Shown here in pieces: positions 14,410 through 57,775 of a stretch of DNA of 60,481 nucleotides; the stretch's first letter is position 1, and each line of letters starts with the position of its first letter. The stretch spans positions 1 through 60,481 of the forward strand of contig NZ_CALEFV010000051.1 of assembly GCF_937877005.1 (NCBI RefSeq). The letters are read 5' to 3'. The translations under genes were made by a program, and so were the position numbers. The notes beneath the pieces are model-generated. The model was not told where the DNA came from. It ran no database searches and saw only the letters and a program-made list of their open reading frames with translations. The DNA comes from an uncultured Fibrobacter sp. GTDB taxonomy: Bacteria > Fibrobacterota > Fibrobacteria > Fibrobacterales > Fibrobacteraceae.

Positions 14410-14412
14410 ATT

Positions 14413-18189: not shown

Positions 18190-18191
18190 CT

Positions 18192-21956: not shown

Positions 21957-21982
21957 ATTACGAATATATAAATGTGAAAACT

Positions 21983-27987: not shown

Positions 27988-30105
27988 TTAGCGACTCATC
28001 ACCTTGAAGACGTACTTTCCTTTTGGCAGTCCCTGCAGCGACACTTCAGATTCCATGCGCACCGTCTTTCGAGCCATCAGCTGACCCATCGGGTTCATCA
28101 CGAAGACTTCGTAATTGCCAGGACGATCAAAATGGAGGGTGTAGCCCAAAGCATTTGCAGTCAATTTATAGCCGGTTTTCAAAGACTTTGCCTGAGCGAG
28201 AGCCGTCGAAATTTCGCTGGAACTGGAAACTTCAGCGATGCTGGAGCTAGATTCCACCGGAGCCGCGCTAGAACTAGATGCCGGCGGATTCACGCTAGAA
28301 CTAGATGCCGGCGGTTCGATAGAGGCTGCCTTTCCGAAGCGGATGTTGCCCACCAGCACTTCGCCGCTCATGCCGCTACCCGTGAGGTAGAAGTCCTTGA
28401 CGCCCGAAAGCTTCTTGGTGGCAGAGCAGTTCACTTCGGTCCAGGCGCCGTTTGCGCAGCTCGAAGGAACAGTGCACTTGGAAAGTTCCGTACCCGAGGC
28501 AGAACCCTCGCGGATACTGAGCGTCCCGCCGCTGCACTGCTGCAGTTCGACCTTGACTTCGGTGCTCCTGATGGAATCCGTCACCACGTTTTCGAAGATG
28601 GCGTAGCCACCGTTCTTGACGGCAAGCTTGTCGTCCTTCGTGAGGCGCACCTTGATTCCGTTATCGAATCCGTTGCCCGGAATGGTATCGCGAATCACGC
28701 GCAAGAAGTCGATACGGTCCAGTTCCGCAAAATTCTGGTCAGGTTCCACCTCAATAAAGTTGCCGCCGCGCTTGAGCTTTGCAGGCACCATCGCCACGGA
28801 CTTTTCGGGGAAACTGCCCCAGGCGCCCGTCTTCGGGAGCTTTACCGTCTGCGCCTTTCCATTCACCGTTACTTTATGCGTAGCATCATTATCGCCGCCG
28901 TTCGCGTAACGGTAACGCATAATGTAGTCGCCCGCCTGCATAATGTTCATCGGCAAGCGAATCTTGGAGCCCTTCGTATTGATGTAGCCCACGTATTCGC
29001 CGTTCGAGGCTTCCTTCGTGTAATTGAAGGTCAGGTCATCCGTCGCACCGCGTGTCATGATGCCGTGTTCCGCCTCGGCACTCAGGTAGCGCCCGAGGAA
29101 GGGCTGCCCCATTTCGGGCCAGTTGTCGTCGGTAAACACCAGGTCGCGAATGTGGATGTGGTTGTACTTGTCGCCGGTCAGGTCGTAGTAATGATGCACA
29201 AAGCGGATGCGGTTCAGGTCCTTGAAGGCCTCGCCGCCGCCCGGGCCCACATAACGGCTGTAACGCTGCATCAGGATGGTTCCGCCGCCCTTGTTGAGTT
29301 CCTTGCCGCTGCGGTCCTTGTAGGTTCCGTTCACCTTGTCGGCGCGGCCCATGGCCGTCTTGTAGGTGGTCTGTTCGATTTCGTTACCTTGTTTGCAACA
29401 TACGTCCCAGGCCGTGAACAAGAAATACTGCCCGCCGTGCTCGATGAGGCTCGGGCCTTCGATACCCGTACCGCCACGCGTCGCAATCTGGTAGTTCGTC
29501 TTGTCATCGCTCGCCTGCTTGCCCGTCTTGGGGTCCAGCTTGATCAAGCGGATACCGCCCGCATTCCACGAACCGTACGTCATCCAGTACTGGCCATCGG
29601 GAGTCACCACCACGTCGGCATCAATCGCGTTGTAGTTGTTGCTGTTCGTAGTGCGCGTTACCTCACCCTGGTCCGTCCAACCCTTTGCCGGATCCGAGAA
29701 GTTCAGGTTCGCGTTCGTCGCGACACCGATGGCAGAGGTGCGCTGGCCAAAAACGGAGCCGCAGTAGAACACGCCGTACTGGTTATTGAAATGGAACAGG
29801 TCCGGAGCCCAGATGCCGTCGGTCTTGCCGCCCACGGCATTCTTGAGCCACTGCGGGCTATCCCTGAAAATCTGGCCCTTCGAACTCCACTTGACCATGT
29901 CCGTCGAGGTCCACATGGCGAGGTTGTTATTCGTGGACATAAGGATGTAGCCATTCTCGTCCCTGTACATGGAGGGGTCATGGCCCCCTTGACGCACGTC
30001 AGTTGCATACCACGACTGAGCGAACGCACCTTGGCCCGCCAAGGCGAGCGTGAAAATTGCCGCGGATACCACTCCGCGAGAATTCAATCCCATCACACCA
30101 AACAT
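27988..30105 (-). CDS. GH43 endo-1,5-alpha-L-arabinanase-like protein with CBM35/CBM6 modules
   Basis: HDPS, IWAPD, NAIDAD, GIEGP, WDVCC, GPGG motifs; AEAEHG...YANGG...TGAW CBM; T9SS-like C-terminal domain. Confidence 0.9.
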   Translation of the reverse strand: MFGVMGLNSRGVVSAAIFTLALAGQGAFAQSWYATDVRQGGHDPSMYRDENGYILMSTNNNLAMWTSTDMVKWSSKGQIFRDSPQWLKNAVGGKTDGIWAPDLFHFNNQYGVFYCGSVFGQRTSAIGVATNANLNFSDPAKGWTDQGEVTRTTNSNNYNAIDADVVVTPDGQYWMTYGSWNAGGIRLIKLDPKTGKQASDDKTNYQIATRGGTGIEGPSLIEHGGQYFLFTAWDVCCKQGNEIEQTTYKTAMGRADKVNGTYKDRSGKELNKGGGTILMQRYSRYVGPGGGEAFKDLNRIRFVHHYYDLTGDKYNHIHIRDLVFTDDNWPEMGQPFLGRYLSAEAEHGIMTRGATDDLTFNYTKEASNGEYVGYINTKGSKIRLPMNIMQAGDYIMRYRYANGGDNDATHKVTVNGKAQTVKLPKTGAWGSFPEKSVAMVPAKLKRGGNFIEVEPDQNFAELDRIDFLRVIRDTIPGNGFDNGIKVRLTKDDKLAVKNGGYAIFENVVTDSIRSTEVKVELQQCSGGTLSIREGSASGTELSKCTVPSSCANGAWTEVNCSATKKLSGVKDFYLTGSGMSGEVLVGNIRFGKAASIEPPASSSSVNPPASSSSAAPVESSSSIAEVSSSSEISTALAQAKSLKTGYKLTANALGYTLHFDRPGNYEVFVMNPMGQLMARKTVRMESEVSLQGLPKGKYVFKVMSR
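28266..28314. repeat. Tandem duplication (22-bp identical core, 27-bp period) in the arabinanase linker
   Basis: cgctagaactagatgccggcgg at 28266 and 28293; encodes PPASSSS twice. Confidence 0.9.
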
Positions 30106-30118: not shown

Positions 30119-30139
30119 TTTACTATAAGGTTTACTATT
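30119..30139 (-). promoter_or_regulatory. Direct-repeat operator candidate AATAGTAAA-cct-TATAGTAAA
   Basis: Lies between TATATT (30142-30147, minus) and the RBS of the arabinanase gene; same 12-bp period as other cluster sites. Confidence 0.65.
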
Positions 30140-30273: not shown

Positions 30274-30306
30274 AAAAATCCCCGACTACCTCGGCTGGGG
30301 ATTTTT
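30274..30306 (-). terminator. Intrinsic terminator after PL1 gene
   Basis: aaaaatcccc...ggggattttt stem-loop. Confidence 0.75.
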
Positions 30307-30339: not shown

Positions 30340-32118
30340 TCAGTCTTTTCGGATCAGCTTATTTACAATTCCACCATTCAGCTTCTGGCGGACGATGTAG
30401 CGGCCCTGCGGAAGGCCCTGCGTAGTCATGCCCACATAGTGGCCGTTCATATCAAAGATGCCTACCGTGACAGCATCTGCGCGAAGACGATACGTGTCAG
30501 CGAGGCGCGTAATAGATGAATCTTGCGTTGCCATGTCCGAGTCGCTTGAATCCTGCGCCGTCGTATCGGCGGCGATATCGTTTTTTTCCACAAGCACCTC
30601 GACGCGGCCCGTATATTCGGTATTGTCGTTGCCCTTCACGGTGTACTTGAACGAGGCGAGCCCGCTGAAATTCGCCTTGGGCGCAAACCTTGCCGTATAG
30701 CCGTCACCCGCCAGCTCCACGGTTCCGTTCTCCGCAGCAGACACACTGTAGGTCGGCGACACATCCTTGAACCCGCGCGTAATCGTGCGCAGGTCAAAAT
30801 CGAGGGACTTCCCGCCCACAGCCGACGCGTGCATGGCGCCCAGCCAGTTGATGTATTTCTCGATACGCACGTAGCCGTCGCTTTCATTGGTCATCGCGTC
30901 ATCTTTCGAGTTGTCATAACCCATCGCTTCTTCGAAGTAATCCGGCATACCGTCCTTGTCGGAATCTGTCGCGGCCTTTCCCGCAATCACCTCGCCCCAG
31001 CCGTTATTGGTTTTGATTCCCATGGCACCAACGCTTTTCACCAAGGCTCCTTCTTTCCCAAGTGTCCCCACCTGGTGCCATATCAGGGAATCAATGTCGT
31101 CGTACGGGAGCACGCCACTCTGCGACGTCACGTAGCGCCACGCACTTGCGGCACTGAGCATCGGGCCCGATGTCGTAAGTTCGCTCCAGGGTTTCGCAAG
31201 TTCCTCGCCCGCGCCCTGGTAGTAGTAAATGCTTGAAGGCCCGCCGTTCAGTTTTCCGTCGCGGTCCGTGTCAATCATGTTCCCGCTGGCGTAGATGCTC
31301 TGGTTCTTGTCTACCTGGAACCATGGGTTGCTTCCCTTCGGACCGTAGACAAAGTAATTGTTTACGATGTCGTGGTTGAAGTGCGTGCTAGTGTGCGTCG
31401 TGTAGCCCGCCTCGAAGTTGTAGAGGATGTTGTTCACGAACACGTCGTTGATCTTGTCAAGCGGGTTTCGGTTGTGCGTATTCACGAAGGCATTGTAGTA
31501 CCACGCCCAAGTGCCATCTACCGATTCGATGTGCGCCCCGAACTGCTGTCCGATAGGGTTTGCAATCAGCGAGTTCTGCACCGTTACGCCCGTCACACGG
31601 TAATCTTTATTATCAGAACTTCCGCCGAAGTTGTTCCACGACGCAAGTTCCACCGAGCAGTGATCCACAATCACGTTCTTCGCATCGTAAAGGTTGAGCG
31701 CATCGTCCTTTTCGGAGGCGGTATTTTCGCCCGGGCGTATACGCAGGTAGCGGATGATGATATTGCTCTGCTTGCCCGTGCTGAGCTTGCCGCCGTGAAT
31801 GGCGATTCCCTCGCCCGGGGCCGTCTGCCCCGCGATGGTAATGTTACTCTTGATGGAAACTGCCGTCTTGATGTTGATGATGCCACCCACGTCAAAGACC
31901 ACAATGCGGTTTCCCTGGCTTACCGCGTCGCGGAAGGATCCCGCACCGTCATCGTTCAGGTTCGTCACGTGATAAACGCTGCCGCCGCGGCCACCTGTAA
32001 CATTCGCCCCGAAGCCCAAAGCTTCAGGAAAGGCTAACGGCTCGGCACCCGCCCCGATAAAACCAAACACTGTTAGGCAGAGCGCCGATACCGCCGTCCT
32101 TGAACCAAGCATACCCAT
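30340..32118 (-). CDS. Pectate lyase family 1-like protein
   Basis: AFPEALGFG...GGRGG.VYHVTNLNDDGAGSFRDA, TIAGQTAPGEG, VDHCS, RNP, DSDKDGMPD. Confidence 0.88.
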   Translation of the reverse strand: MGMLGSRTAVSALCLTVFGFIGAGAEPLAFPEALGFGANVTGGRGGSVYHVTNLNDDGAGSFRDAVSQGNRIVVFDVGGIINIKTAVSIKSNITIAGQTAPGEGIAIHGGKLSTGKQSNIIIRYLRIRPGENTASEKDDALNLYDAKNVIVDHCSVELASWNNFGGSSDNKDYRVTGVTVQNSLIANPIGQQFGAHIESVDGTWAWYYNAFVNTHNRNPLDKINDVFVNNILYNFEAGYTTHTSTHFNHDIVNNYFVYGPKGSNPWFQVDKNQSIYASGNMIDTDRDGKLNGGPSSIYYYQGAGEELAKPWSELTTSGPMLSAASAWRYVTSQSGVLPYDDIDSLIWHQVGTLGKEGALVKSVGAMGIKTNNGWGEVIAGKAATDSDKDGMPDYFEEAMGYDNSKDDAMTNESDGYVRIEKYINWLGAMHASAVGGKSLDFDLRTITRGFKDVSPTYSVSAAENGTVELAGDGYTARFAPKANFSGLASFKYTVKGNDNTEYTGRVEVLVEKNDIAADTTAQDSSDSDMATQDSSITRLADTYRLRADAVTVGIFDMNGHYVGMTTQGLPQGRYIVRQKLNGGIVNKLIRKD

Positions 32119-32237
32119 AATCATCCAACCTTTTGATCCGTTTAAGGATTTCCTTTGGGGAATATACCTTCTTTTTACGCCAAGAGGGCGACATTCCCTA
32201 ATAACGGTTGTCCATGGACAACACGCAACCACAATCC

Positions 32238-33590
32238 CTAAAGGTCACCAGCCACACGTTTTTGCAGGGCGTAGAAGAGCCGCATCCAGTCGTTGGACTG
32301 CGTGCCGTCAAAGAAGAACACCTCGTCGATTCCGCCGCGAAGTCCGCCGTAGCCGATCGACGGGTTGAATGCGGTGGCAAAGCCTTCGCCCGCATCGAAC
32401 TGCCTGGTTTCAAGCAGCGTTCCGTCGATGAACGTAGTCACGCTATCGCCATGAATCTTGAACGAGTAGTTGTGCCACGTGCCGTCGAGCGCTCCGTTCG
32501 CGCGGCCCACGACCGTATTGTAAACGCCCGTACGCGTGTCGAGCCTGAGGTTCACCGCGCCCGACGTTCCGCGTTTCTGCAATCTGAATCCCGTGCTGTC
32601 CTTCTTGGCTGAAATAATTTGAGCGTATTCGCTCACCTGCATGGAATCGATATTGAACCAGATTGAAAGCCCCATGTAGTAGCCGTCTTCGGAGAAGGGC
32701 CTGAAATCGGAGATGTAGAACCAGTTGTCGGTAGAATCCGTCCAACGGGAATTGCCAAGCACGGATGTGAGTTCGTTGCCGGTAGCGAGAGCCGCTTCCG
32801 AAGGCGTGGCCGAGTCAAAATGTTCCGCGTAGCGGGCGAGTGCAAGTTCAATCCGGTCGCTGGACTGGCACGATTCTACGATGTCAAGGGAAATCGCGCC
32901 ATTCTCGTCGAAGGCGACCTGCGGCAGCATGCCCCAATAAACAGCGGAATCGGATGCTTTTACCGTAGGGGAGTCCGAAAGATCGGCACGACTGAGGCGC
33001 ACCATGTTGCCGTTAGCATCCAGCAGGCAGGGATTCTTTACTTCCGGGAGCCGGACCGCGAAAGGCATATCTTCGAACACTTCATCCGACAAGGCCAAAT
33101 CTTCAAAGCCCTCAGGAAGCACAAGCGCGACAGCGCCCTTGAATTCCGCATCCAGCGCGCGGTCGATATTCGTGGAATTTTCCTCGACGTTCCAGGAAAC
33201 AGCCACCGTACGCACGTTACCTTCCAGAGGGTGCACCGAAACGGATTCGTAATCGCCCACGGGCAGGCTATCGAGCGACATCACGCCCGACGCGCACTCA
33301 ATCGAGGTCGCCACATGCCTGTAATTCACCGTATCTACATACAAAGTGTCGCCCACGGTGTCGGCGCTCACCTTGAACACCACGACAGTATCGCCTGCGA
33401 CAATGTTCAGGTTCTCGACAGAAACGAGAACCCGAGCGACGCTCTTGTTGCCGGTATTCGTCTCGATAAGGATTCCGGCGGAATCCGCAGAAGACGTATC
33501 GCTGCAGCCCGCAAAGAAGGCGAGCGCGCACGCCGCGACAAAAGCGAACGCAAGTCGTCCCGAGCTAAACATATTCCTAAAGCGTCCCAT
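32238..33590 (-). CDS. Lipoprotein with C-terminal LamG/ConA-like jellyroll domain; partner of TIGR02147 protein
   Basis: Lipobox FAGC, AGILIETNTGN motif, LSIWFN...DGTWHNY...FIDG...GGIDEV...WMRLFY. Confidence 0.8.
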   Translation of the reverse strand: MGRFRNMFSSGRLAFAFVAACALAFFAGCSDTSSADSAGILIETNTGNKSVARVLVSVENLNIVAGDTVVVFKVSADTVGDTLYVDTVNYRHVATSIECASGVMSLDSLPVGDYESVSVHPLEGNVRTVAVSWNVEENSTNIDRALDAEFKGAVALVLPEGFEDLALSDEVFEDMPFAVRLPEVKNPCLLDANGNMVRLSRADLSDSPTVKASDSAVYWGMLPQVAFDENGAISLDIVESCQSSDRIELALARYAEHFDSATPSEAALATGNELTSVLGNSRWTDSTDNWFYISDFRPFSEDGYYMGLSIWFNIDSMQVSEYAQIISAKKDSTGFRLQKRGTSGAVNLRLDTRTGVYNTVVGRANGALDGTWHNYSFKIHGDSVTTFIDGTLLETRQFDAGEGFATAFNPSIGYGGLRGGIDEVFFFDGTQSNDWMRLFYALQKRVAGDL

Positions 33591-33604
33591 AAACACCTTC
33601 CTCC

Positions 33605-34462
33605 CTACGCCTCGCCCGTTCCGGACGGTTTATTGTTTTCGCGGATGTTGCTGAACACGTGTAGGTTCACGTGCTCTACGACGGTCGGTGTCTCGTTGTC
33701 GGCCATCACGATCTGGCGCACCTGCGCCTTGAATTTTTCGGCAGCCTTCTCGACCTTCGCCTGCGCGGATTTCGACACCGCGAACGTGAACGTGGTCATG
33801 TCGCGTGATTCGCTCCCTTCGGATTCCAGTGCCTGCTTCGAGAGTTCCAGGCACTGCTTCTGGAACTGGAGCACCATCTGGCTCTTGCTCTGCTGCACTG
33901 TGGCAAGGCTATCCTTCGTCGGCTTCCAGAACCCGCGTTCGTCCTTGCGCACGAGCGACATCTTCTGCATGAGTTCAAGGCTTGCCTTCAGGCGCTTCTC
34001 GGACACGGGCGGGAAAATCTTCGCCGCAAGTTCCGACACGTCGTCGCCCACATCCATCACCTCGAGAATCGCATAGACCGTGCTGTTGTACCAGTTGCCA
34101 AAGAACTCGTAGCTGTCCGGGTCCACAATCGCCTGCGGGTTCTTGTTCAGGCGCATCATGGCATCGAACGCCGCTTCGCGCACCTGGGCAGTCTTCCCCT
34201 GGTCGAAATCGACCATCGCCTCGAAATACCTCGCCTCATTTCCCTTGAGCCCGATGACGTTTATAAAACGCTCGCGCATGTTGTCGGTCACGCGTTTGCC
34301 CTGCACCACGTCATTGAAATAGCTGCGGGTATTGGGAAGTCCCAGAAGATTACAGAACTCGGTACGCGAAAACGAGGGCTCCGCCGCCTGACGGCGCTCC
34401 TGGTATTCCGCCAGGAACTTGCGGAACTTGGTAAACTCGAAAATGTTTACGAAGGTATTCAT
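33605..34462 (-). CDS. TIGR02147 / DUF4423 family protein (putative DNA-binding regulator)
   Basis: IFEFTKFRKFL..Y......PSFS...F...LG...RSYF..V..GKR; FFGNWY; RDMTTFTF; HVNLHVF. Confidence 0.9.
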   Translation of the reverse strand: MNTFVNIFEFTKFRKFLAEYQERRQAAEPSFSRTEFCNLLGLPNTRSYFNDVVQGKRVTDNMRERFINVIGLKGNEARYFEAMVDFDQGKTAQVREAAFDAMMRLNKNPQAIVDPDSYEFFGNWYNSTVYAILEVMDVGDDVSELAAKIFPPVSEKRLKASLELMQKMSLVRKDERGFWKPTKDSLATVQQSKSQMVLQFQKQCLELSKQALESEGSESRDMTTFTFAVSKSAQAKVEKAAEKFKAQVRQIVMADNETPTVVEHVNLHVFSNIRENNKPSGTGEA

Positions 34463-34483
34463 ATTATTAAATATACATAAAAA

Positions 34484-34504
34484 TGTAGTACATGGTATAG
34501 TAAA
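34484..34504 (+). promoter_or_regulatory. Direct-repeat operator candidate TGTAGTACA-tgg-TATAGTAAA
   Basis: In the divergent TIGR02147/PL11 intergenic region, 8 bp from the TIGR02147 TATATT element. Confidence 0.65.
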
Positions 34505-34774
34505 AGTTGAAAATTTTCCCTGTACGGGACGCGTTCAAGCCCCGCCTCGGGGTGTTGACACTCGAAACAGGCGCAAAAAATGGCGAAAACGGGGCATTTT
34601 TCGGCAATTTCTCTACAAATGTGGACATTTTATAGTAATAAACAATCGACAGACTTTGTAAAATAAGGTAAATTATTGAGAAAATGTAGACTTTTAATAA
34701 AAATTTAGATTATATTAAAAATCGGTACGATATGTACCGTTTGGTGAAACATCTACCCTTTTGGGGAGGAAAAT

Positions 34775-37357
34775 ATGGTGTATTGTGGTAAGAAAGCGCC
34801 GCTTGCGGCGTGTGTAGCGTTGTCCTTTGGACTCGCCATCCCGTCTTTCGCGGCCCCGCGTCAGATGGAAAACCTGAGCCGCGGTCTCGTGGCTTCTAAC
34901 GTCGGAAAAGGCATGCTGGTCAGCTGGCGACTGCTCGGGAGCGACGCCCCGAATACCGAATTCAACCTCTACCGCGACGGGACAAAAATTGCGACCATCG
35001 CAGGCAACGGCGCGACAAACTACCTCGACGCTTCGGGCAAGGCGACCTCCAAGTATACGGTCGCCGCAGTCGTGGACGGCAAGGAAGGCGCGCAGGCCAG
35101 GCTCTCGTTCGTGTTCGACAAGTCGGCCAATTCCGACGGCAAGAACATCCCGTACGCGACCCTCAAGCTCGACCGCCCGGGCGACCTCAAGATGCCCGAC
35201 GGTTCCAGCTGCAGCTACACCTCGAACGACATGAGCGTGGGCGACCTGGACGGCGACGGGGAACTCGAACTTGTCGTAAAGTGGGACCCGAGCAACCAGA
35301 AGGACAACTCGCAGAGCGGCTACACGGGCAATGTGTATATTGACGGCTACAAGATGAACGGCAAAAAGCTGTGGCGCATCGACCTGGGCAAGAACATCCG
35401 CGCGGGCGCCCACTATACGCAGTTCATGGTCTACGACCTGGACGGCGACGGCATCGCCGAAGTCGCCATGAAGACAAGCGACGGCACGGTCGACGGTACG
35501 GGCAAGGTCATCGGCGACAAGAGCAAGGATTACCGCACAAAGACCGGCACCATCATGAGCGGGAACGAGTTCCTGACCGTGTTCAACGGTAAAACCGGTG
35601 CGGCCATCACGACCATCGACTACGTGCCGGGCCGGGGCGTCACCAAGAACTGGGGCGACACCTACGGCAACCGCAGCGAACGCATGCTCGCGGCCATCGC
35701 CTACCTCGACGGTGTGCACCCGAGCCTTATCATGTGCCGCGGTTACTACACCAACGCCTACGTGGTGGCCTACGACTTCGACGGCAAGCAGCTCAAGCAG
35801 CGCTGGTACCACAAGTCCGAAACGAGAGGCCAGGGAATCCACGGCCAAGGCAACCACAACCTTTCCGTGGGCGACATCAACGGCGACGGCAAGGACGAAA
35901 TCGTGTACGGTTCCGCGGCCCTCAAGTCCGACGGCACGCTCCTTTACCGCACGGGGCTCGGCCACGGCGACGCGCTCCACCTTTCCGACATGGATCCCGA
36001 CCGCCCGGGCCTTGAATCGTGGGATGTTCACGAAGAAAAGTCCGCCGCCTATACCGACGACTTCCGCGGCCCCGACGGCAAGATCATCTGGGGCACCAAG
36101 CAGCCGAACCCGGGCGTAGACAACGGCCGAGGCCTCGCCGCAGACATCGACGCGGACCACCGCGGATTCGAGATGTGGAGCAGCGCGGGCGACGGCGTGA
36201 AGAACGTGAAGGGCCAGAAGATTTCGGGCAGCAAGCCCTCGGTGAACTTCCGCATCTATTTCGACGGCGACTTGCAAGACGAACTGCTTGACGGCGCAAT
36301 AGACAAGTGGAGCACCAAGGACAAGAAGGCGAACCGCTACTTTACCTACGGCAACGTGAACAAGTCCACTACGAACAACGGAACAAAGAAGAACCCGAGC
36401 CTCGTGGCCGATTTGTTCGGCGACTGGCGCGAAGAACTTATCCTGCGTTCGGGCAGCGACGCCTCCATGATTACGATTTTCGGCACTCCGGTCACGACGG
36501 ATTACCGCGTGTACACCCTGATGCACGACCCGCATTACCGCGTGAGCATTGCCTGGCAGAACGTGGCCTACAACCAGCCACCGCACCTGGGCTACTACCT
36601 GCCCGACGCGGTAAAGAACCTGAAGCAGCCTTCCATTTATCTCGCAGGTGACGGTACTACCCCTGTGGTTATTGACCCGGTGATTGTCGACCCCGTTATT
36701 CCCGAGATCAAGCACGACATGACGAAGGAATCGTTCGTGGATGCATCCGCCCCGGCAGAAGGTAAAGGTACCTTCGAAGACACGAACGAAGGCTGGAAAG
36801 AGAAGGGCTACTACAACTTCGACAACGATGCGGCGAGCTTTGCCACCTGGAAAGTGACCGCGAAGGAAGACGCGAAGACGACCGTCTCCATCGTGTTCGC
36901 AAACGGCGGGAACGATGCCCGCGACATGAACCTCTCCGTAAACGGTGGCGAAGCGGTCAGCGTAAGCCTGCCTTCTACCGGCAGCTGGACCACATGGCAA
37001 GAAGTCCAGGTTCCCGTGAACATCGTGAAGGGAGAGAATACGCTCAAGCTCTCCTCCACCACGGAGAACGGCGGCCCGAACGTGGACGGTTTCTACTTCG
37101 GGGTACCGGGTGTGACGCTTTCCTCTGCAGAAGGGACGACCGCCCTTGCGACAAGCGTACAGAAGCTTGCCCGTGGCGGATATGCCGAAATCGAGATTTA
37201 CAACATGAGTGGCCGCATCGTGGGGACCATCGCGAAGTTTGTCGCCGCGGGCGAGAGCGCCGTGGACCTCTCGCAGGAACCGCTCCCGAAGGGGAGTTAC
37301 CTCGTGCGCGTAAAAATCGACGGCAAGTACATCTCCAAGGGAATCTTTAAGAAATAG
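34775..37357 (+). CDS. Rhamnogalacturonan lyase family 11 (YesW/YesX-like) with CBM35-like module
   Basis: RQMENLSRGLVA, LVSWRLLG, DLDGDG repeats, NIRAGAHYTQFMVYD, QGNHNLSVGD, WQNVAYNQPPH. Confidence 0.95.
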   Translation: MVYCGKKAPLAACVALSFGLAIPSFAAPRQMENLSRGLVASNVGKGMLVSWRLLGSDAPNTEFNLYRDGTKIATIAGNGATNYLDASGKATSKYTVAAVVDGKEGAQARLSFVFDKSANSDGKNIPYATLKLDRPGDLKMPDGSSCSYTSNDMSVGDLDGDGELELVVKWDPSNQKDNSQSGYTGNVYIDGYKMNGKKLWRIDLGKNIRAGAHYTQFMVYDLDGDGIAEVAMKTSDGTVDGTGKVIGDKSKDYRTKTGTIMSGNEFLTVFNGKTGAAITTIDYVPGRGVTKNWGDTYGNRSERMLAAIAYLDGVHPSLIMCRGYYTNAYVVAYDFDGKQLKQRWYHKSETRGQGIHGQGNHNLSVGDINGDGKDEIVYGSAALKSDGTLLYRTGLGHGDALHLSDMDPDRPGLESWDVHEEKSAAYTDDFRGPDGKIIWGTKQPNPGVDNGRGLAADIDADHRGFEMWSSAGDGVKNVKGQKISGSKPSVNFRIYFDGDLQDELLDGAIDKWSTKDKKANRYFTYGNVNKSTTNNGTKKNPSLVADLFGDWREELILRSGSDASMITIFGTPVTTDYRVYTLMHDPHYRVSIAWQNVAYNQPPHLGYYLPDAVKNLKQPSIYLAGDGTTPVVIDPVIVDPVIPEIKHDMTKESFVDASAPAEGKGTFEDTNEGWKEKGYYNFDNDAASFATWKVTAKEDAKTTVSIVFANGGNDARDMNLSVNGGEAVSVSLPSTGSWTTWQEVQVPVNIVKGENTLKLSSTTENGGPNVDGFYFGVPGVTLSSAEGTTALATSVQKLARGGYAEIEIYNMSGRIVGTIAKFVAAGESAVDLSQEPLPKGSYLVRVKIDGKYISKGIFKK

Positions 37358-37373
37358 AACCCCCATAAACTCC

Positions 37374-37414
37374 CCGTCTAGCGCCCTTTCTCGGAAGGGC
37401 GTTAGGCGGCTTTT
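37374..37414 (+). terminator. Stem-loop / terminator after PL11
   Basis: ccgtctagcgccctt...aagggcgttaggcgg followed by ctttt. Confidence 0.65.
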
Positions 37415-37451
37415 AACATTAACGGATTTTACAAAAAGGGATTGGTTTAAA

Positions 37452-39224
37452 ATGAACGGATTTTATTCAAAGATTTGGCAAAGCCTCGTGGCAATTTCCA
37501 TGGTCATTGCCCCGGCAGCCGTATGGGCGAAAGTAACCATCTACATGTGCGGCGATTCCACCATGCAGGACTGGAACGCAGGCTATTACCCCAAACAGGG
37601 CATCGGCCAGAATTTCGGATACTTCTTCGATTCCGGGCTCGCGACCGTCAAAAATTACGGTGCGGGCGGTACCGCCGCAGAAACTTATTACAACGGCGGG
37701 AAATGGACCCCGGTCAAGAACGCCCTCCAGAAAGGCGACTACGTATTCATCAAGTTCGGAATCAACGACCGCAACTACAGTTCCGAAGCCGGTTACCGCA
37801 CCTACATGACCAAGATGATCAACGAGGCGAAGGCCAAGGGAGCCTACCCCATCATCGTGAATCCGGTACGCCGCAGCGATTTCCGCGGAACAAAGCAGGA
37901 TTCCATTTACGAGTCCTACCACAATTACCCGATTATCGCACGCGAACTTTCGAAAACGCTCAACACGCCCATCATCGACATGGACACCCTGAGCCGCAAC
38001 TACTTGCTTTCCGTAGGCCAGTTCTACGCTCACCATTACCTGAACGTGGTGCTCGACAAGGGCGAATACAGCAACTACGCGAACGGGAACAATGACAACC
38101 TTCATTTCCAGCAGAACGGAGCCATCGCTTTCGGGCGCATCATTACCGAACAGTTGCGCGTACATCCGGACGCTCAGGTGAAAAAACTCGCCGACTACTT
38201 GGCGCCCATGTACAAGGTAGACGTGAAAGTCAGCCCCGCAGGTTCCGACCAGGCAACGACTATCAGCTCCTATTATCCCAAGGGCATGACGGTGACGCTC
38301 AAGACTACACCAAAATCCGGCAAGAAATTTCTTGGCTGGTATGACGGCAACGGCAAAAAGGTAAGCGGGAACGCGAATACCACGGTAAAATCAGACAAGA
38401 TATACACCTTCGTCATGGGTTCTGCCAGCACGCAATACACCGCAGTTTATGAAGGCGGCACCGCAGAAAAATATACCGGCGACGGCAAGGCTTTGACAAG
38501 TTTCCCGACAGGGACGCCGAAAAAGCTTTCCGACGTGACTTACTCCGTAGACACTACCGCGAAAGACTCCGTCCAAGAAGAAGAAAAGCATATAAGCCTA
38601 GACATCAAGAACTTTATCGACGCCGCCAATCCCGACACGGGAAGCGGCGCCACCGAGGCAAACCACGAAGGCTATACGGGAAACGGTTTCTTCAATTTTG
38701 AAAACGTGCTGAATTCTTCCGCCGAATACAAGATGAAGTTTCCCTCCGCGGGCTACGTGACCATGGGAATCCGCTATTCCTTTGCCGGCACCGAAGAGCG
38801 CTCGCTGAACGTGTACCTCGACCACGATTATATCGTGAAGTTCAAGCCTACGGCAGATTGGGACACCTGGGATACCGCCTACGTGGATCTAGACCTCATC
38901 AACGGCGAAGGAATCCTCAAGTTCATTTCCATGACCGAAAACGGAGGGCCGAACATAGACGCATTCGGGTTCAGCGTTGACGGTGTGGAACGAATCGTCC
39001 CCGAAGTCGAAACAACGTCCCTGAAAGGCAACATTCTTTCTGTCGCGAAAAACGAAAACACGAGGATAGATGTTTTCGACATGTCGGGCCGTCTGGTCGC
39101 CCGCAAGCTCTCCGGCAGCGACAACATAGACCTGTCCGACATCGTCCAGGCAAGCGGCATCTACCGCATCATCGTCCGCAACGGGAAACACAAATTTAGC
39201 ACCACCTGGGCCAACGTAAAATAA
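37452..39224 (+). CDS. CE12 rhamnogalacturonan acetylesterase (SGNH) with B-repeat and CBM35-like module
   Basis: GDSTM, FGIND, DNLH catalytic motifs; C-terminal VFDMSGRLV domain. Confidence 0.88.
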   Translation: MNGFYSKIWQSLVAISMVIAPAAVWAKVTIYMCGDSTMQDWNAGYYPKQGIGQNFGYFFDSGLATVKNYGAGGTAAETYYNGGKWTPVKNALQKGDYVFIKFGINDRNYSSEAGYRTYMTKMINEAKAKGAYPIIVNPVRRSDFRGTKQDSIYESYHNYPIIARELSKTLNTPIIDMDTLSRNYLLSVGQFYAHHYLNVVLDKGEYSNYANGNNDNLHFQQNGAIAFGRIITEQLRVHPDAQVKKLADYLAPMYKVDVKVSPAGSDQATTISSYYPKGMTVTLKTTPKSGKKFLGWYDGNGKKVSGNANTTVKSDKIYTFVMGSASTQYTAVYEGGTAEKYTGDGKALTSFPTGTPKKLSDVTYSVDTTAKDSVQEEEKHISLDIKNFIDAANPDTGSGATEANHEGYTGNGFFNFENVLNSSAEYKMKFPSAGYVTMGIRYSFAGTEERSLNVYLDHDYIVKFKPTADWDTWDTAYVDLDLINGEGILKFISMTENGGPNIDAFGFSVDGVERIVPEVETTSLKGNILSVAKNENTRIDVFDMSGRLVARKLSGSDNIDLSDIVQASGIYRIIVRNGKHKFSTTWANVK

Positions 39225-39233
39225 GGAGCCAGC

Positions 39234-41120
39234 ATGAAGAGTCTTTTCAAATACGCCATCGTGGCCGGCCTGTTTACAAGCCTTGCCGTGAGCGACAGCA
39301 CATCCTTCACCATCCATGTCATCGGCGATTCTACGGTCTGCAACTACAAGGATTCCGCATACCCGCAAAAAGGTTGGGGCCAGGTGCTGAACAACTTCTT
39401 CGACGCCTCCCGCGTGAAAGTAAACAATGTGGCCATTGGCGGGCGCAGTTCCAAGAGTTTCATCGTTGACGGGCGTCTAAAAAGCCTCGAGCCAAACATC
39501 CAGAAAGGGGATTTCGTGTTCGTGCAGTTCGGGCATAACGACCGCACCGCAAACAAGCCGGAACGCTACGTGCCCCAGGATTCCTTCCCGTATTACATGA
39601 AGCAGTACATCACGACGGCGCAAAAGCGCGGGGCAACCCCGGTGCTGGTTTCAACCGTCACCATGAGCGGGTCGCGCAACGTATTTTCTACCGGGAGCAA
39701 CAACTACGATTCCCGCGGCATGATGCTAAAACTTGCGAAGGATTACAAGATTCCCTTCGTAGACCTGAACATGAAATCCTACAATACCTATAACAATACA
39801 TACAAAGGAATGATGGATTCGTATGTCAAGAAATTCCTTTATATGCAACTGGATGCAGGACTTTACCCCAACTACCCCAACGGCAGTAACGACGGGAATA
39901 CGCACTTCCAGGAAATGGGCTCCATGGGCCACGGCACCATGATTGCAGAAGAACTGGAAAGGGGCGTAAACGACACCTTCCTTTCGCCCGAATCAAAGGC
40001 AGAACTCACAAAGCTCGTTTCGGCGTTACGCCCCCGCTACAAGGTGACCGTAAAGGCGAACATCGCGACAAAGGGCGCTATCACGCAGGATCAGAGTTTC
40101 CCGGGAGGTTCCCCCATGACCCTTCGGGTGGCCCCCGCAAGTGGCGAGACCTTTGAATACTGGGCAGACGAGAATTGCAAGAAGATTTCGTCCAACAAGC
40201 TCTACTACGGTTTCAAGACGCCCAACCACAATACGACCTACACCGCCATGTTCAAGGGCGGCGCCGCCTGTGTCGCAAGCTCAACTACCGAAAACGAAAG
40301 TTCCAGCTCTGTAATGCCCGCTTCTTCCAGTTCCGAAATCCCGCAATCCAGTTCCGCCATCGTAGAATGCTCCAACCTCAAGGGAATCAAGGCTTGGCCG
40401 TCTCCCATCGATATGGCGAACCCGGACAAGGGAGACGGCACCACCGACACGAATCACGAGGGCTACGTAGGCAAGGGATTTTTCAACTTGACCAACGACA
40501 TTTCCAGCACAGCTATGTACAAGCTCACTTCCGACAGGTCAGCCACCAACGCGCGAGTTATGGTGCGCTACGCATTTGACGGAACCGAAAATCGCGATAT
40601 GAAAATCAAGATCGATGCAGTCACCTACGATATAAAGCTACCCCCTACCGGCGGCTGGGATATCTGGGACACCGCCTACGTGGAAGACGTTTGGCTCGAT
40701 GCCGTGGATTTCGACATGGTCCTCTATTCCACGACAAATAACGGAGGCCCCAACATTGACATGGTGTCCTTTACCAACGAGGCCGTACACCGGGTCGGAT
40801 GCCCCGTCGCCGAAGTACTCAAGGACTCTAGCGGCACGCAGGACCCCGAAAAGGGCACCACCATCGCCGCCACCATGCAAAAGAAGCAAATGGGTTTTGA
40901 CCCTCGGAACCTCACCTTCCGTTCTGCCGGCGGCTTGGCACACATACAAATCATGAATGCACTCGGCAAGACGGTTGTTGACGAGACCCGCATGGTTTCG
41001 GCCGGCAGCACAGCACTCCTGCAGGGAGGCGCTCGGCTTTCGGCCGGTCGCTACTACCTGCGCATAGAACTTGACGGGAAAATCGCCATTTTGGCGCATT
41101 TTGCGGTTTCAAGAGAATAA
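39234..41120 (+). CDS. CE12 rhamnogalacturonan acetylesterase (SGNH) with CBM35-like module
   Basis: GDSTV, GWGQ, AIGGRSSKSF, QFGHND, NTHF. Confidence 0.88.
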   Translation: MKSLFKYAIVAGLFTSLAVSDSTSFTIHVIGDSTVCNYKDSAYPQKGWGQVLNNFFDASRVKVNNVAIGGRSSKSFIVDGRLKSLEPNIQKGDFVFVQFGHNDRTANKPERYVPQDSFPYYMKQYITTAQKRGATPVLVSTVTMSGSRNVFSTGSNNYDSRGMMLKLAKDYKIPFVDLNMKSYNTYNNTYKGMMDSYVKKFLYMQLDAGLYPNYPNGSNDGNTHFQEMGSMGHGTMIAEELERGVNDTFLSPESKAELTKLVSALRPRYKVTVKANIATKGAITQDQSFPGGSPMTLRVAPASGETFEYWADENCKKISSNKLYYGFKTPNHNTTYTAMFKGGAACVASSTTENESSSSVMPASSSSEIPQSSSAIVECSNLKGIKAWPSPIDMANPDKGDGTTDTNHEGYVGKGFFNLTNDISSTAMYKLTSDRSATNARVMVRYAFDGTENRDMKIKIDAVTYDIKLPPTGGWDIWDTAYVEDVWLDAVDFDMVLYSTTNNGGPNIDMVSFTNEAVHRVGCPVAEVLKDSSGTQDPEKGTTIAATMQKKQMGFDPRNLTFRSAGGLAHIQIMNALGKTVVDETRMVSAGSTALLQGGARLSAGRYYLRIELDGKIAILAHFAVSRE

Positions 41121-41146: not shown

Positions 41147-41185
41147 TTGCATTTTTAAAAATTTTATAGTACATTTTGTAGTACA
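41147..41185 (+). promoter_or_regulatory. Promoter (TTGCAT-17-TACATT) overlapped by direct repeat TATAGTACA-ttt-TGTAGTACA
   Basis: -35 at 41147-41152, -10 at 41170-41175, repeats at 41165-41173 and 41177-41185. Confidence 0.7.
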
Positions 41186-41216: not shown

Positions 41217-42881
41217 ATGGATTACAAAACTGAAATCAAGGGCTACGATACCCTTGTCAAAACCGCCACGATGGTGACTGTCGCAGCGCTTCTGGCAGCT
41301 TTCTCTATGGCAGAAGCCGCAGAAAACTACAAGTTCGACTTTGGCGAGGGCCCGGTTGCCGCGGGCTACACGCAGGTCAAGGCCAACACCAAGTACAGCG
41401 ACTCGCAGGGCTACGGTTTCGAAAGCGGGACGGTTTCTTCGGTAGACCGCCTGTGGGACGACGACCTCACCACGGATTTCCTGACGGCGAAGGGCGACAT
41501 GGTTTTCTCGGTGGCGCTCCCGCAAGGCAATTACGAGGTGACATTCATTCTCGGTGACGGCGAAAACGAAAGCGAAACCACCGTATGGGCCGAAAACCGC
41601 AAGCTCATGCTCGACCGCATCACCCTCGCCGGCGGCGTGTTCAGCAGGCAGACCGTTTCGCTCAGGCGTATGGAAACAAGAAGCATGGACGGCTCGGTGA
41701 CCATGAGCATCAAGGACCGCGAAAAGGATTACCGCACCTGGGACAAAAAACTCACCTTCGTCATCAGCGGCAAGGCGCCCGCCGTCGCAGGAATCGAAAT
41801 CAAGCGTAACGACAACGTGACCACGCTCTGGCTCTGCGGAAATTCCACCGTGGTCGACCAGATAATGGCACCGTGGGCGGGCTGGGGCCAGATGGCCCCG
41901 GGATTTTTCAAATCCAGCCTTGCCATCGCGAACTACGCCGAATCGGGCCTTACCGCCAGCGGGTTCTACAGCATGAAGCGCCTCGCAAAGATTCTTTCCG
42001 AAGTCAAGAAGGGCGACTTCGTGACCGTGCAGTTCGCGCACAACGACCAGAAGAACCAAAACGACGTGAACAACTACGAAGCGACCCTCACCAAGTACGC
42101 AAACGAAATCAAGGCGAAGGGCGCCATTCCGCTGTTCGTGACATCCACCGCAAGGCAGAACGAGACCGACCCGAAAACAGCCGTGGGCGGGCTTCCCGAA
42201 CGTATGCGCGCCCTCGGCAAAAAGCTCGGCGTCACCGTGCTTGACCTGAACCAGCACAGCATCACGCTCGGCAAGGCGCTCGGAGGCAACAAGGAAAAAA
42301 TGTACATGTACACCGCGAGCGACAAGACGCACTTCTGCGAATACGGCGCCTACGAACTCGCCCGCGCGAACATCGAAGAAATCAAGGCGAAGGTACCCGA
42401 ACTCGCCAAGCACCTGCGCGATGATCATGATGCGTTCGATTCCAGCAAGCCCGATCCGCTCGACATTCTCACTCGGGCAAAGACGCCCATCACCGAAGGC
42501 GGGCTGATTCAAGTGGAACCGGAATCCAGCTGTTCCGAAGATCCGGAATCCTCTTCAAGCGAAGAAATCACCGGTCCGCAGTCTTCCAGCGCAGAAGGCG
42601 CATCTTCCGGCACAGAAGATACCGAAGGCGTCACCGCTGTTGAATCCTTGACTCCGCACAACGCCATCAGCGGGCGAATCGACGGTAGCACGCTCCGTCT
42701 CGAAGGCATCGACGGAGGCGCGCACGACATCAGCATCTTTGACATGCAGGGTCACCGCATCGCTGAATTCCGCGCCATGCAGGGGAACGAACTCCACATC
42801 ACCCTGCGGCAAGGAGCCTTCCTCGTCAAGGTCGCGCAAGGCAACAGAACTCTCGGTTTTTTCAAAGCCGTAAGGTATTAA
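41217..42881 (+). CDS. CE12 rhamnogalacturonan acetylesterase (RhgT/YesT-like)
   Basis: YKFDFG N-terminal domain, GNSTVVDQ..PWAGWGQM, NYAESG, QFAHND, DKTH. Confidence 0.9.
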   Translation: MDYKTEIKGYDTLVKTATMVTVAALLAAFSMAEAAENYKFDFGEGPVAAGYTQVKANTKYSDSQGYGFESGTVSSVDRLWDDDLTTDFLTAKGDMVFSVALPQGNYEVTFILGDGENESETTVWAENRKLMLDRITLAGGVFSRQTVSLRRMETRSMDGSVTMSIKDREKDYRTWDKKLTFVISGKAPAVAGIEIKRNDNVTTLWLCGNSTVVDQIMAPWAGWGQMAPGFFKSSLAIANYAESGLTASGFYSMKRLAKILSEVKKGDFVTVQFAHNDQKNQNDVNNYEATLTKYANEIKAKGAIPLFVTSTARQNETDPKTAVGGLPERMRALGKKLGVTVLDLNQHSITLGKALGGNKEKMYMYTASDKTHFCEYGAYELARANIEEIKAKVPELAKHLRDDHDAFDSSKPDPLDILTRAKTPITEGGLIQVEPESSCSEDPESSSSEEITGPQSSSAEGASSGTEDTEGVTAVESLTPHNAISGRIDGSTLRLEGIDGGAHDISIFDMQGHRIAEFRAMQGNELHITLRQGAFLVKVAQGNRTLGFFKAVRY

Positions 42882-42904: not shown

Positions 42905-42938
42905 AAAAAATCCCCGGCCGATTGGTCGGGGATTTTTT
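42905..42938. terminator. Bidirectional intrinsic terminator between convergent operons
   Basis: aaaaaatccccggcc...ggtcggggatttttt. Confidence 0.85.
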
Positions 42939-51659: not shown

Positions 51660-51723
51660 TGTACTATAAATTGTACTATAATTTTCTATAAATATAACTC
51701 TTTTTACTACAAAGCGTACTATA
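51660..51723 (-). promoter_or_regulatory. Two direct-repeat operator candidates flanking a TATATT -10 element
   Basis: Minus strand: TATAGTACG-ctt-TGTAGTAAA (51703-51723), TATATT (51691-51696), TATAGTACA-att-TATAGTACA (51660-51680). Confidence 0.72.
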
Positions 51724-52948: not shown

Positions 52949-53004
52949 CTTCTACTCCTTCCGCCTACAAGCAAAAAAAGGCGGGGTAAAGTGTTCTCGA
53001 TACA

Positions 53005-53036
53005 AATATACATTCCCCGGATGTCACATTATGACA
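53005..53036 (-). promoter_or_regulatory. Palindrome TGTCA-N5-TGACA 11 bp upstream of a TATATT -10 element
   Basis: tgtcacattatgaca at 53022-53036; aatata at 53005-53010. Confidence 0.55.
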
Positions 53037-53119
53037 ATCGTCGAAATTCGCGGAAATTTTGAGAATTTTGACGCCCCCCCCCGCAGGCGGTTGAAATCTG
53101 CATTGTCACCTTGTAATGC

Positions 53120-54082: not shown

Positions 54083-54103
54083 CTTCTACTCCTATAAACG
54101 CAA

Positions 54104-54169
54104 AAAAGCCGACCTTTGCTATATAAGAACGCCCAATTTTATTGGGGATATAACAAAAAGTCGGCTTTT
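54104..54169 (-). other. Long hairpin in the 5' leader of the ORF6N gene
   Basis: aaaagccgac...cccaat-ttt-attggg...gtcggctttt nested inverted repeat between TATATT (54224-54229) and the RBS. Confidence 0.6.
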
Positions 54170-54312
54170 CTAGTCGAACTTGGCTTGCAAGCGGATATTC
54201 GCTGCCGGTGCCTGTCATGGTGCAATATACAAAAAGCTGAGTAAAAAAAGGCAAGGGAACTCCCTTTTTGTCATCTTTTGCCATTCCAAAAATCTATATT
54301 TCAAGGCAAATA

Positions 54313-54643
54313 GAGTTTTCTCTTGTTCTCTACTTGAAACTTCGACAATTTCTGCAACGAGAACAAGGCGACGCTCACGTCTGCGACCGGCGCAAGCCTG
54401 CCGCATCGTTTTGGTACATGCATATTTTGTAAATCTGCCTGTAGGCAAACGGCCATTTGGGGCGTGAGTTGTTTGCGTTTATTCGTTGCGGGCAGTCGAA
54501 GGCCTCAAGTAGGTAAATGCATTCAACTCCACGCCTTTTTTATTTCCCAAAAAGACTGAAGAAATGCAGAACAGGGGTGGACTCGCTGAGTTTTGCTCTT
54601 GTCCTCTACTTGGAACTTCGACACTTTCAGCAACGAGAATAAG
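54313..54643. repeat. Two imperfect direct repeats (54313-54367 and 54588-54643), each forming a hairpin
   Basis: Manual alignment gives 5 substitutions and 1 indel over 56 columns; each copy is closed by cttgttctc/gagaacaag-type arms. Confidence 0.85.
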
Positions 54644-54725
54644 ACAATAACTCGCCATCGCCCGTGGATTGCATGGGCGTAGTGTACCCTGGGCGTACTG
54701 TATCCGCTCGGGCTTGTTTTGCAAC

Positions 54726-54758
54726 GTCATTGCGAACCCTGAAAGGGTGAAGCAATCC
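54726..54758. repeat. REP-like palindromic element of the GTCATTGCGA...GCAATC type
   Basis: gtcattgcgaaccctgaaagggtgaagcaatcc. Confidence 0.7.
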
Positions 54759-57769: not shown

Positions 57770-57775
57770 TCCTTG

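Follow-up and report, generated by a model that had tools for sequence, protein, structure and literature searches.

What does a regulator gene coupled to a lipoprotein gene do at the centre of a cluster of pectin-degrading genes in Fibrobacter, and how would the two products act? The genome paper on Fibrobacter succinogenes S85 recognised few regulators close to its cellulase genes and called their transcriptional regulation unanswered (PMC3079729), and the literature searched (supplements were outside the search) gave no functional study of the TIGR02147/DUF4423 family; its one occurrence there was a Bdellovibrio protein listed in a table. We examined a contig of 60,481 nucleotides (nt) from an uncultured Fibrobacter sp., called the window below, in which a TIGR02147 gene is followed by the gene for a lipoprotein with a C-terminal LamG domain (coordinates of all features are collected in Table 1). 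The region from 26 to 52 kb is a cluster of carbohydrate-active enzyme (CAZyme) genes, coding for three GH43 proteins, a PL1-like lyase, a family-11 rhamnogalacturonan lyase (RGL11), three GDSL esterases, a Pel9A-like lyase and a GH53 galactanase. The original prediction, made from the DNA letters, had cast the pair as a trans-envelope glycan-sensing system consisting of a cytoplasmic DNA-binding protein, autoregulated through a direct repeat, and a membrane-anchored lectin-like sensor. The pair probably switches the pectin-degrading genes on or off; the part of the prediction that described a DNA-binding-like regulator beside a direct repeat is supported, the repeat proving cluster-specific and travelling with the regulator's orthologues, and the part that made the lipoprotein a sensor passing a signal to the regulator gained no support and is the less likely reading.

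The identity of the regulator was confirmed directly by its profile matches: it aligned with NCBIfam TIGR02147 at E 4.2e-74 (249.4 bits, above the curated cut-off of 50) over nearly the full length of the model (profile positions 2-270 of 272), and with Pfam DUF4423 (PF14394) at E 2.2e-21 (76.8 bits, cut-off 30). It had been described as the sole regulator-like gene of the CAZyme cluster, and a Pfam scan of the 39 open reading frames (ORFs) of at least 150 amino acids (aa) in the window (E<=1e-4) found no other regulator-like domain between 24.4 and 51.6 kb. An AlphaFold2 model built from an alignment of 24 paralogues (pLDDT 84.3) has an N-terminal helical domain, a central winged helix and two long C-terminal helices (191-214, 231-254). 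When compared with VIA-align, the N-terminal region matched XRE/HigA-type helix-turn-helix (HTH) proteins at Z 8.2 (2eby), 8.0 (3pxp), 7.6 (2ict, HigA) and 7.5 (3trb), and the winged helix matched the PadR-family protein Rv1176c at Z 9.2, followed by chains at 8.9 and 8.7 (CzrA) and by MarR, ArsR and HxlR chains; the best winged-helix alignment had an rmsd of 3.2 Å over 71 residues (model 120-195), and many winged-HTH families lay within 1 Z unit of each other. The HTH-like N-terminus claimed beforehand was thus seen at the level of the fold (Z 7.5-8.2) but not by sequence, no Pfam HTH model (the HTH_3 type included) matching at E<=0.1; HTH_3 is present on 14% of the members of one atlas cluster of regulator relatives. 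Across the 24 paralogues no 19-residue segment exceeded a KD hydrophobicity of 1.38, and a membrane segment is therefore not expected. These folds are compatible with DNA binding, which is not the same as proof of it, and the modelled protein looks like a soluble DNA-binding protein, in support of the cytoplasmic role first proposed.

The candidate operator is a direct repeat, TACTAYA-N4-KTACTAY. It has five matches in the window against 0.02 expected, a count reached in 0 of 100 shuffles, and these five are the only exact copies in the 3.45 Mb of the host genome (357 contigs); every one of them lies inside this cluster, and a reversed-pattern control gave 0. The copy anticipated beside the regulator's own start is present there, and the other copies precede the GH43-CBM6, GDSL-esterase and GH53 genes, the last as a tandem pair. 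The four copies that do not precede the regulator all face the same way with respect to the gene downstream. We also searched for promoters with the sigma-70 consensus, noting that the promoter rules of Fibrobacterota may differ; the only match near any repeat copy was TTGACT-17-TATATT at 30170-30142 (-), which stops four bases short of the GH43 copy. Lying just past the -10 element, this copy would span the expected transcription start, which may be a repressor-like position.

The repeat was then compared with the presence of the regulator in 25 other genomes of the genus, where orthologues were defined by E<=1e-100 and had 78-100% identity (the nearest paralogue within the host genome has 46%). 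An orthologue was found in five of them (G061, G062, G065, G071 and G073). All five carry the exact repeat, which is absent from 19 of the 20 genomes that lack the orthologue; the other one, G074, has two scattered exact repeats. In each of the five a repeat copy lies upstream of the orthologue, on the regulator strand and within 190 nt: at 22-32 nt in G065, G073 and G062, and in G061 and G071 as a one-mismatch copy at about 35 nt with more copies out to about 190 nt. Further copies in these genomes precede GH53 and GDSL-esterase genes, the tandem pair being kept before the GH53 orthologues of G065, G061, G071 and G073, and the LamG lipoprotein gene follows the orthologue in G073, G061 and G062. 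A functional link between this paralogue and the repeat is likely, because non-coding DNA has been conserved at 78% protein identity and the pattern of presence and absence is clean. The model strain S85 has an orthologue 89% identical, FSU_2524, so the predictions made here are directly testable; from FSU_2522-2526 only FSU_2522 was met in the same literature (supplements again excluded), as a GH43 entry in a table. The cluster itself is rearranged between close relatives: on contig C12 of G065, which has a 100% identical regulator, the genes for the RGL11 lyase and for two GDSL esterases (window 34775-41120) are missing between the regulator and the esterase gene corresponding to that at 41217, and a single divergent region contains the two operator copies, with about 105 nt between them.

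We consider it likely, from these sequence comparisons, that the repeat is bound by the TIGR02147 protein and that this protein controls both the operon it belongs to and the neighbouring galactan and rhamnogalacturonan I genes. As a soluble, locus-specific transcription factor, it would place two protomers in tandem on the 12-bp-period direct repeat (G/T)TACTAYA by means of the winged helix and/or the XRE-like HTH. The copy upstream of its ATG would provide autoregulation of a three-gene operon (regulator, LamG lipoprotein and pectate lyase), the four further copies would bring the GH43, GDSL-esterase and GH53 genes under its control, and the operon and repeat-bearing genes together would form a galactan/rhamnogalacturonan side-chain regulon. 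Repression may be somewhat the likelier mode than activation, because the operators lie at or just downstream of the sole recognisable promoter.

Several observations weigh against such a role. When up to one mismatch was allowed, the genome gave 8 matches to the repeat versus 21 to the reversed control, which is no enrichment. The copy at 34485 holds the common orientation relative to the divergent RGL11 gene, and may serve that gene instead of, or besides, autoregulation. The fold scores of the regulator are middling (Z 7.5-9.2, in the range described as common for VIA-align), and a Foldseek search of the PDB with its model gave no match at E<=0.001 (best E 0.03). The association of regulator and repeat is a co-occurrence among related, non-independent genomes. 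The regulator has no recognisable ligand-binding domain; this, with relatives that hydrolyse pectin but do not use it (PMC3079729), makes a cytoplasmic inducer hard to name.

The same middling fold scores, together with the tight translational coupling described below, could be taken to mean that the repeat is read by an unlinked regulator and that the TIGR02147 protein acts outside transcription, for instance by helping to translate or target the pre-lipoprotein or to control its quality, given that winged-helix and HTH folds also mediate contacts with protein and RNA. We think this very improbable, as the repeat co-occurs with and adjoins the orthologues of this paralogue and the cluster has no other regulator gene.

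Repeats of other kinds were seen before other TIGR02147 genes. An ad hoc scan for repeats of 9-14-bp period upstream of 24 regulators was too crude to be of use and missed even the TACTAYA repeat. A 14-bp-period repeat, CTAAGTTC-N6-CTAAGTTC, lies upstream of one paralogue (C302:1566-1587) and occurs 8 times at up to 1 mismatch, mostly on contigs of 1.6-2.5 kb; it may mark a further regulon or be a repeated element. The closest paralogue (46% identity) has the A-rich repeat CTCAAAA-N5-CTCAAAA (12-bp period) 26 nt upstream, at C173:1315-1334. Within the genus, 10 of 10 other genomes also have this repeat about 50 nt upstream of a subfamily of paralogues with 58-63% identity (e.g. G078:C8:9075-9094). 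Each paralogue group may have a direct repeat of its own, or the CTCAAAA pattern may come from shared ancestry.

The lipoprotein gene begins 8 nt (GTG 33596) or 14 nt (ATG 33590) past the regulator stop codon, within the 15 bp stated at the outset. Metatranscriptome contigs at 32676-34341 and 32893-34291 (two runs of one study) span the junction between the two genes, which is compatible with co-transcription and does not prove a single transcript, as DNA carry-over is possible; the stretch 34342-34508 was free of contigs from RNA runs X1 and X2, a result that is uninterpretable, and run X10 yielded no contigs here. By its sequence the protein is a predicted lipoprotein, with a signal peptide that is its sole strongly hydrophobic stretch (KD19 1.89 at residue 13) and a lipobox cysteine invariant in 31 homologues. 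Nine residues past this cysteine lies the IETNTGN peptide noted originally, in which AG 38-39 and I42-E43-T44-N45-T46-G47-N48 are invariant or at least 90% conserved among the same homologues; several homologues have the IETNTGN unit twice in tandem (…IETNTGNKVLIETNTGx…, alignment columns ~70-95), and conservation with duplication tends to be typical of short linear motifs bound by another protein. The AlphaFold2 model (31 homologues, pLDDT 85.4, pTM 0.82) renders the peptide-bearing stretch, residues 28-46, as a flexible tether (pLDDT <50), followed by two β-sandwich domains and a LamG jelly-roll. This jelly-roll matched CBM40 and neurexin LNS/LamG domains (Foldseek E ~1e-7, prob 1.0) and, with the Laminin_G_3 profile match, places the C-terminal domain as expected in the LamG/ConA-like lectin superfamily; its glycan binding is putative. 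The protein has 67 homologues, and all those with a named source are from Fibrobacter.

We examined if this coupling extends to the other TIGR02147 genes, as inconsistent coupling of the paralogues had been named as grounds for giving up the idea of a pair. The host genome has 28 matches to the family, three of them at contig ends without downstream DNA. In 23 of the 25 that could be assessed, the next ORF codes for a peptide-bearing lipoprotein that begins -56 to +15 nt from the regulator stop codon (22 partners were identified by pattern rules and the one on C344 by eye); on C173 a second TIGR02147 gene stands between the first and a gene for a peptide-bearing lipoprotein, and on C98 it has no same-strand ORF downstream. 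The regulator gene always comes first and is translationally coupled to its partner, so that the pair in the window is one copy of a fixed two-gene unit repeated about 25 times in the genome. The coupling is phylum-wide: 55 of 61 sampled Fibrobacterota genomes have TIGR02147, with up to 34 or more matches each, and the same arrangement was seen in 20 of 20 loci from 15 genomes in nine other families (15 by pattern, 5 by eye), these loci being the top of the match list and not a random sample. The idea of a pair survived this check. In public data the family comprises 20,618 clusters at 50% identity (E<=1e-3). The C-terminal domains of the partners vary (FISUMP in 7, CarboxypepD_reg-like/Ig-like only in about 10, LamG in 2, and CBM4_9, pectate lyase and a weak CIA30-like domain in 1 each). 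Downstream of the cassettes are genes for an rRNA methyltransferase, GidA, RuvA, BipA, GH5, GH43-CBM6 and further FISUMP lipoproteins, and no third gene, membrane-spanning or other, is conserved beside them. A toxin-antitoxin pair was considered and rejected, the second gene coding for a secreted lipoprotein of 400-1000 aa; a PADLOC search gave no match for the regulator or the lipoprotein.

Most cassettes are without CAZyme neighbours, and housekeeping genes lie downstream in at least 8 of the 20 loci. This arrangement, with the regulator gene always first and translationally coupled, and the 12-bp-period repeat about 50 nt upstream of a second subfamily of paralogues in 10 of 10 genomes, would also suit a self-contained expression switch, in which positively autoregulated, bistable cassettes act mainly on their own lipoprotein and create cell-to-cell diversity of surface proteins, the control of CAZymes being a local addition. 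We regard this as improbable: bistability or heterogeneity is without evidence, the operator position at the GH43 promoter suggests repression, and those 10 genomes may merely share recent ancestry.

The partners have in common an N-terminal module of consensus C-(S)-(acidic/polar)2-8-[VIT]-A-G-x3-[ST]-E-T-x-N, followed by an Ig-like (CarboxypepD_reg-type) domain. NCBIfam has no model for this module, and one partner gave a sub-threshold match of 22 bits to TIGR04134. The synonymous codons of the peptide differ between paralogues, which indicates selection on the peptide and not on the DNA; conservation as a DNA or RNA motif was rejected on the same ground. A profile of the module made from 37 sequences was run against all six-frame ORFs of at least 60 aa in the host genome and found, at E<0.02, the 22 training partners and only two other ORFs; its sensitivity is limited, as it missed the untrained C344 partner and detected 4 of 11 cassettes in G044. 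The two other ORFs, C124:28940-30772 (+) and C352:423-2168 (-), code for near-identical lipoproteins with a partner-type peptide (C-SSDSHV-AG-NSAETGS); the first has no TIGR02147 gene upstream, an opposite-strand ATPase gene being there instead, and the second reaches the contig edge. In G028, which was not in the training set, 15 of the 18 matches at E<=1 lie directly 3' of a TIGR02147 gene, 2 are one gene further along in the same string and 1 is an orphan; in G044, from another family, all 4 matches at E<0.01 adjoin TIGR02147 genes. Among genomes without TIGR02147 the profile gave 0 matches in G042 and G015, and one in G009 that covers only the Ig-like part. The peptide AG-x3-S/T-E-T-x-N is almost exclusively confined to TIGR02147 partners, being present in about 25 of at least 206 lipoprotein candidates of the genome, a rough figure from a crude detector that found 12 of 23 partners.

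What follows the lipobox cysteine may bear on where the partners go. For Bacteroidetes, one study describes a lipoprotein export signal (LES) consisting of a polar residue or Lys and then at least 2 acidic residues at positions +2 to +6 (PMC5080379). The lipoprotein of the window starts C-S-D-T-S-S-A-D, with a single acidic residue within +2 to +6, and C-S-D/E-rich starts are found in many of the paralogous partners, whose residues +2 to +6 resemble the export signals SDDDD and SDDFE given in the same source (PMC5080379). A table in an envelope proteomics study of S85 includes lipoproteins with carboxypeptidase-regulatory domains (PMC6851124).

Might the partner be a sensor, as was first proposed? 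Its variable C-terminal domain, here LamG, would then bind glycan outside the cell or in the periplasm and relay this to the cognate regulator, the N-terminal peptide acting as a transmitter that contacts a membrane component. The near one-to-one and two-way exclusive coupling is akin to that of dedicated signalling pairs, the architecture of a variable outer domain on a conserved short module is sensor-like, many cassettes stand amid housekeeping genes as self-contained signalling pairs do, and the regulator is without an obvious ligand-binding domain; S85, moreover, hydrolyses pectin and xylans without using the products, as its genome paper reports, so that a sensor on the outside would make sense (PMC3079729). 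We nonetheless find this doubtful. There is no membrane-spanning component in the pair or conserved beside it, no part of the lipoprotein faces the cytoplasm once signal-peptidase II has cleaved, and a peptide common to about 25 paralogues cannot alone give paralogue-specific signalling. The acidic, LES-like start points to exposure at the surface, which would put two membranes between the lipoprotein and the regulator, and one partner has a catalytic pectate-lyase domain instead of a lectin. Longer fused forms of the regulator (551-2000 aa) were sought and none was found, which is weak evidence in the same direction. A complex prediction for the regulator with lipoprotein residues 1-60 scored 0.14 against a mark of 0.32, which gives no verdict and counts neither way. 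Signalling from the lipoprotein to the regulator is unsupported: the cassettes have no conserved neighbour that spans the membrane, no membrane segment was seen in the regulator, and the peptide is common to all partners, so that a single transducer recognising it would not distinguish the approximately 25 paralogues.

Alternatively, the lipoprotein may be a product of the operon. The TIGR02147 protein would be a locus-specific transcription factor that autoregulates an operon containing a glycan-binding lipoprotein and controls galactan and rhamnogalacturonan enzymes, a reading that we favour while giving it slightly less than an even chance. The lipoprotein would be a co-expressed, lipid-anchored and probably surface-exposed glycan-binding protein, whose flexible N-terminal peptide may dock it to envelope machinery common to the approximately 25 paralogous partners. 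We favour a product over a sensor because of the missing membrane link, the shared peptide, the start resembling an export signal (PMC5080379) and the one partner fused to an enzyme. Such a generic role in sorting or docking leaves two things unexplained, the restriction of the peptide to regulator-linked lipoproteins and the tight translational coupling, and both speak against it.

We compared the cassette with known systems in which a lipoprotein or a glycan is linked to a regulator. Polysaccharide utilisation loci of Bacteroidota are controlled by SusR, hybrid two-component systems (HTCS) or extracytoplasmic function (ECF) sigma/anti-sigma pairs, and the Bacteroides HTCS joins periplasmic sensor, kinase, receiver and AraC domains in one membrane protein. 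These loci share with the cassette a regulator dedicated to each glycan locus, lipid anchoring of binding proteins that have Ig-like spacers and variable binding domains, an acidic stretch after the lipidated Cys (in many of the partners), and a large number of paralogous units per genome, in a related phylum (FCB). The cassette differs in having no SusC/SusD pair and a soluble regulator of 285 aa without periplasmic sensor, kinase or sigma domain; it has DUF4423 only, and no ORF with the HTCS architecture is among the 39 scanned in the window. The cassette partners also carry the additional AG-x3-ETxN peptide, which is not described in the accessible part of the export-signal paper (PMC5080379).

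In clostridia the sigma factor SigI is paired with RsgI, an anti-sigma factor that spans the membrane and has a cytoplasmic domain; they too form multiple paralogous two-gene units with variable carbohydrate-binding ends on the second protein and linkage to CAZymes, but the cassette has no sigma domain and its only hydrophobic segment is a cleavable signal peptide. The analogy drawn earlier to SigI/RsgI and to HTCS/ECF systems thus keeps its functional likeness and none of their defining parts. The enterobacterial lipoproteins RcsF and NlpE act through inner-membrane proteins (IgaA/RcsCD and CpxA, respectively), are single-copy and are not encoded beside a regulator. Like the partners they have a flexible linker at the N-terminus and could signal events in the envelope or at the surface to a cytoplasmic regulator, whereas the partners are multi-copy and adjoin the regulator, with no inner-membrane partner found beside the cassettes. 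OmpR/PhoB-type regulators read seven-base direct repeats about one helical turn apart, which fits tandem head-to-tail binding of winged helices; the cassette regulator has no receiver domain, its repeat has a 12-bp period versus 10-11, and its winged helix is nearer to PadR/ArsR/MarR. Enterococcal PrgX/TraA are XRE-type cytoplasmic regulators whose signal comes from the signal peptide of a lipoprotein precursor, and purely by analogy this is one conceivable route for a paralogue-specific cue into the cytoplasm. By analogy also, the cassette would work most like a polysaccharide utilisation locus with its own regulator and a lipid-anchored binding protein. The domains that define the SusR, HTCS, ECF/anti-sigma and SigI/RsgI families are lacking, so the cassette belongs to none of them.

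The expanded regulator family, with 28 copies here, offers a handle on the control of cell-wall enzymes in Fibrobacter, and the results give a first predicted operator and regulon for one TIGR02147 member and a strict genetic partnership of the family with lipoproteins that have a common short peptide. There is a real chance of a new kind of signalling pair. One form of it, which we consider rather unlikely, is a new class that replaces two-component or sigma/anti-sigma systems in Fibrobacterota, the partner sensing polymer and the AG-x3-ETxN tether relaying this through shared envelope machinery or a processed fragment. If true, each genome would hold tens of copies of this class, which would make up about 20,000 sequence clusters in public data and would explain the control of enzymes in a bacterium that does not use the products of pectin and xylan; the S85 genome paper reports the absence of genes for transport and metabolism of hemicellulose products (PMC3079729). 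If the lipoprotein were a sensor, this would be a new way of transferring a signal across the Gram-negative envelope.

Table 1. Positions of the pair, its domains, the candidate operators and neighbouring genes within the window
Feature	Position	Strand	Remark
TIGR02147/DUF4423 gene, candidate transcription factor	33605..34462, stop codon included	-	285 aa
XRE/HigA-like HTH region	34175..34435 (residues ~10-96)	-	VIA-align fold match
Winged-helix domain	33878..34147 (residues ~106-195)	-	VIA-align fold match
Lipoprotein gene	32238..33590, stop codon included	-	450 aa from ATG 33590; 452 aa from alternative GTG 33596
Signal peptide and lipobox FFAG-C (Cys29, ATG numbering)	33504..33590	-	Cys29 invariant in 31 homologues
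Post-lipobox peptide AG-ILI-ETNTGN	33447..33479 (residues 38-48)	-	local form of AG-x3-(S/T)-E-T-x-N
C-terminal LamG/ConA-like domain	32301..32732 (residues 287-430)	-	Laminin_G_3 E 1.2e-6, 29.2 bits vs cut-off 27.6
Operator candidate TACTATACCATGTACTAC	34485..34502	-	22 nt upstream of regulator ATG 34462; divergent region common with RGL11 (34775+)
Operator candidate	30121..30138	+	16 nt upstream of GH43-CBM6 gene
Operator candidate	41166..41183	-	33 nt upstream of galactose-binding-domain and GDSL esterase gene
Operator candidates, tandem pair 43 nt apart	51662-51679, 51705-51722	+	61 and 104 nt upstream of GH53
Pectate-lyase-like gene	30340..32232	-	Pfam Pectate_lyase_4 E 2.7e-5; directly 3' of lipoprotein gene
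GH43-CBM6 gene	27988-30105	-	
RGL11 lyase gene	34775-37357 (start 34775)	+	divergent from regulator gene
Galactose-binding-domain and GDSL esterase gene	41217-42881	+	
GH53 galactanase gene	49771-51600	-	
Second TIGR02147 and lipoprotein cassette	10048-12179 (regulator 11304-12179, lipoprotein 10048-11304)	-	DUF4423 E 6.9e-34; outside CAZyme cluster

The pectate-lyase-like gene is on the same strand as the lipoprotein gene and begins about 113 nt past its stop codon if ATG 32124 is used; it is probably the third gene of the regulator/lipoprotein operon, and an inverted repeat with a T-run lies 3' of it, at 30274-30306. The partner in the second cassette of the window has a lipobox, the peptide AGGGPSGTEAGN and CarboxypepD_reg-like (Ig-like) domains, and this cassette is followed, with a 4-nt overlap, by a gene for a TrmB-like methyltransferase. 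Por_Secre_tail is the C-terminal sorting domain of type IX secretion; weak C-terminal matches to it, slightly under the Pfam cut-off, were seen in the RGL11 lyase and in the GDSL esterase at 37452-39224.

Two stretches of the window have a low G+C content. RecBCD-like genes (a RecD-like helicase, a UvrD-like protein of 1258 aa and an Exonuc_V_gamma protein of 1330 aa) occupy 12310-22184, where G+C is 0.44-0.46 versus 0.51-0.57 in the flanks. The stretch 51806-59188 (G+C 0.40-0.47) codes for a YhcG-type nuclease, an ORF6N/Rha-like protein, a C5 cytosine methylase, an AAA_5 (McrB-like) ATPase and an LlaJI-type restriction endonuclease, and looks like a restriction/defence island adjoining the CAZyme cluster. 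The inverted repeat at 30274-30306 has a counterpart at 42905-42937, the two being alike, G+C-rich and set between A- and T-runs (AAAAATCCCCG…GGGGATTTTT); both lie where converging or consecutive transcription units end and, while not listed by a simple terminator scan, are probably bidirectional terminators.

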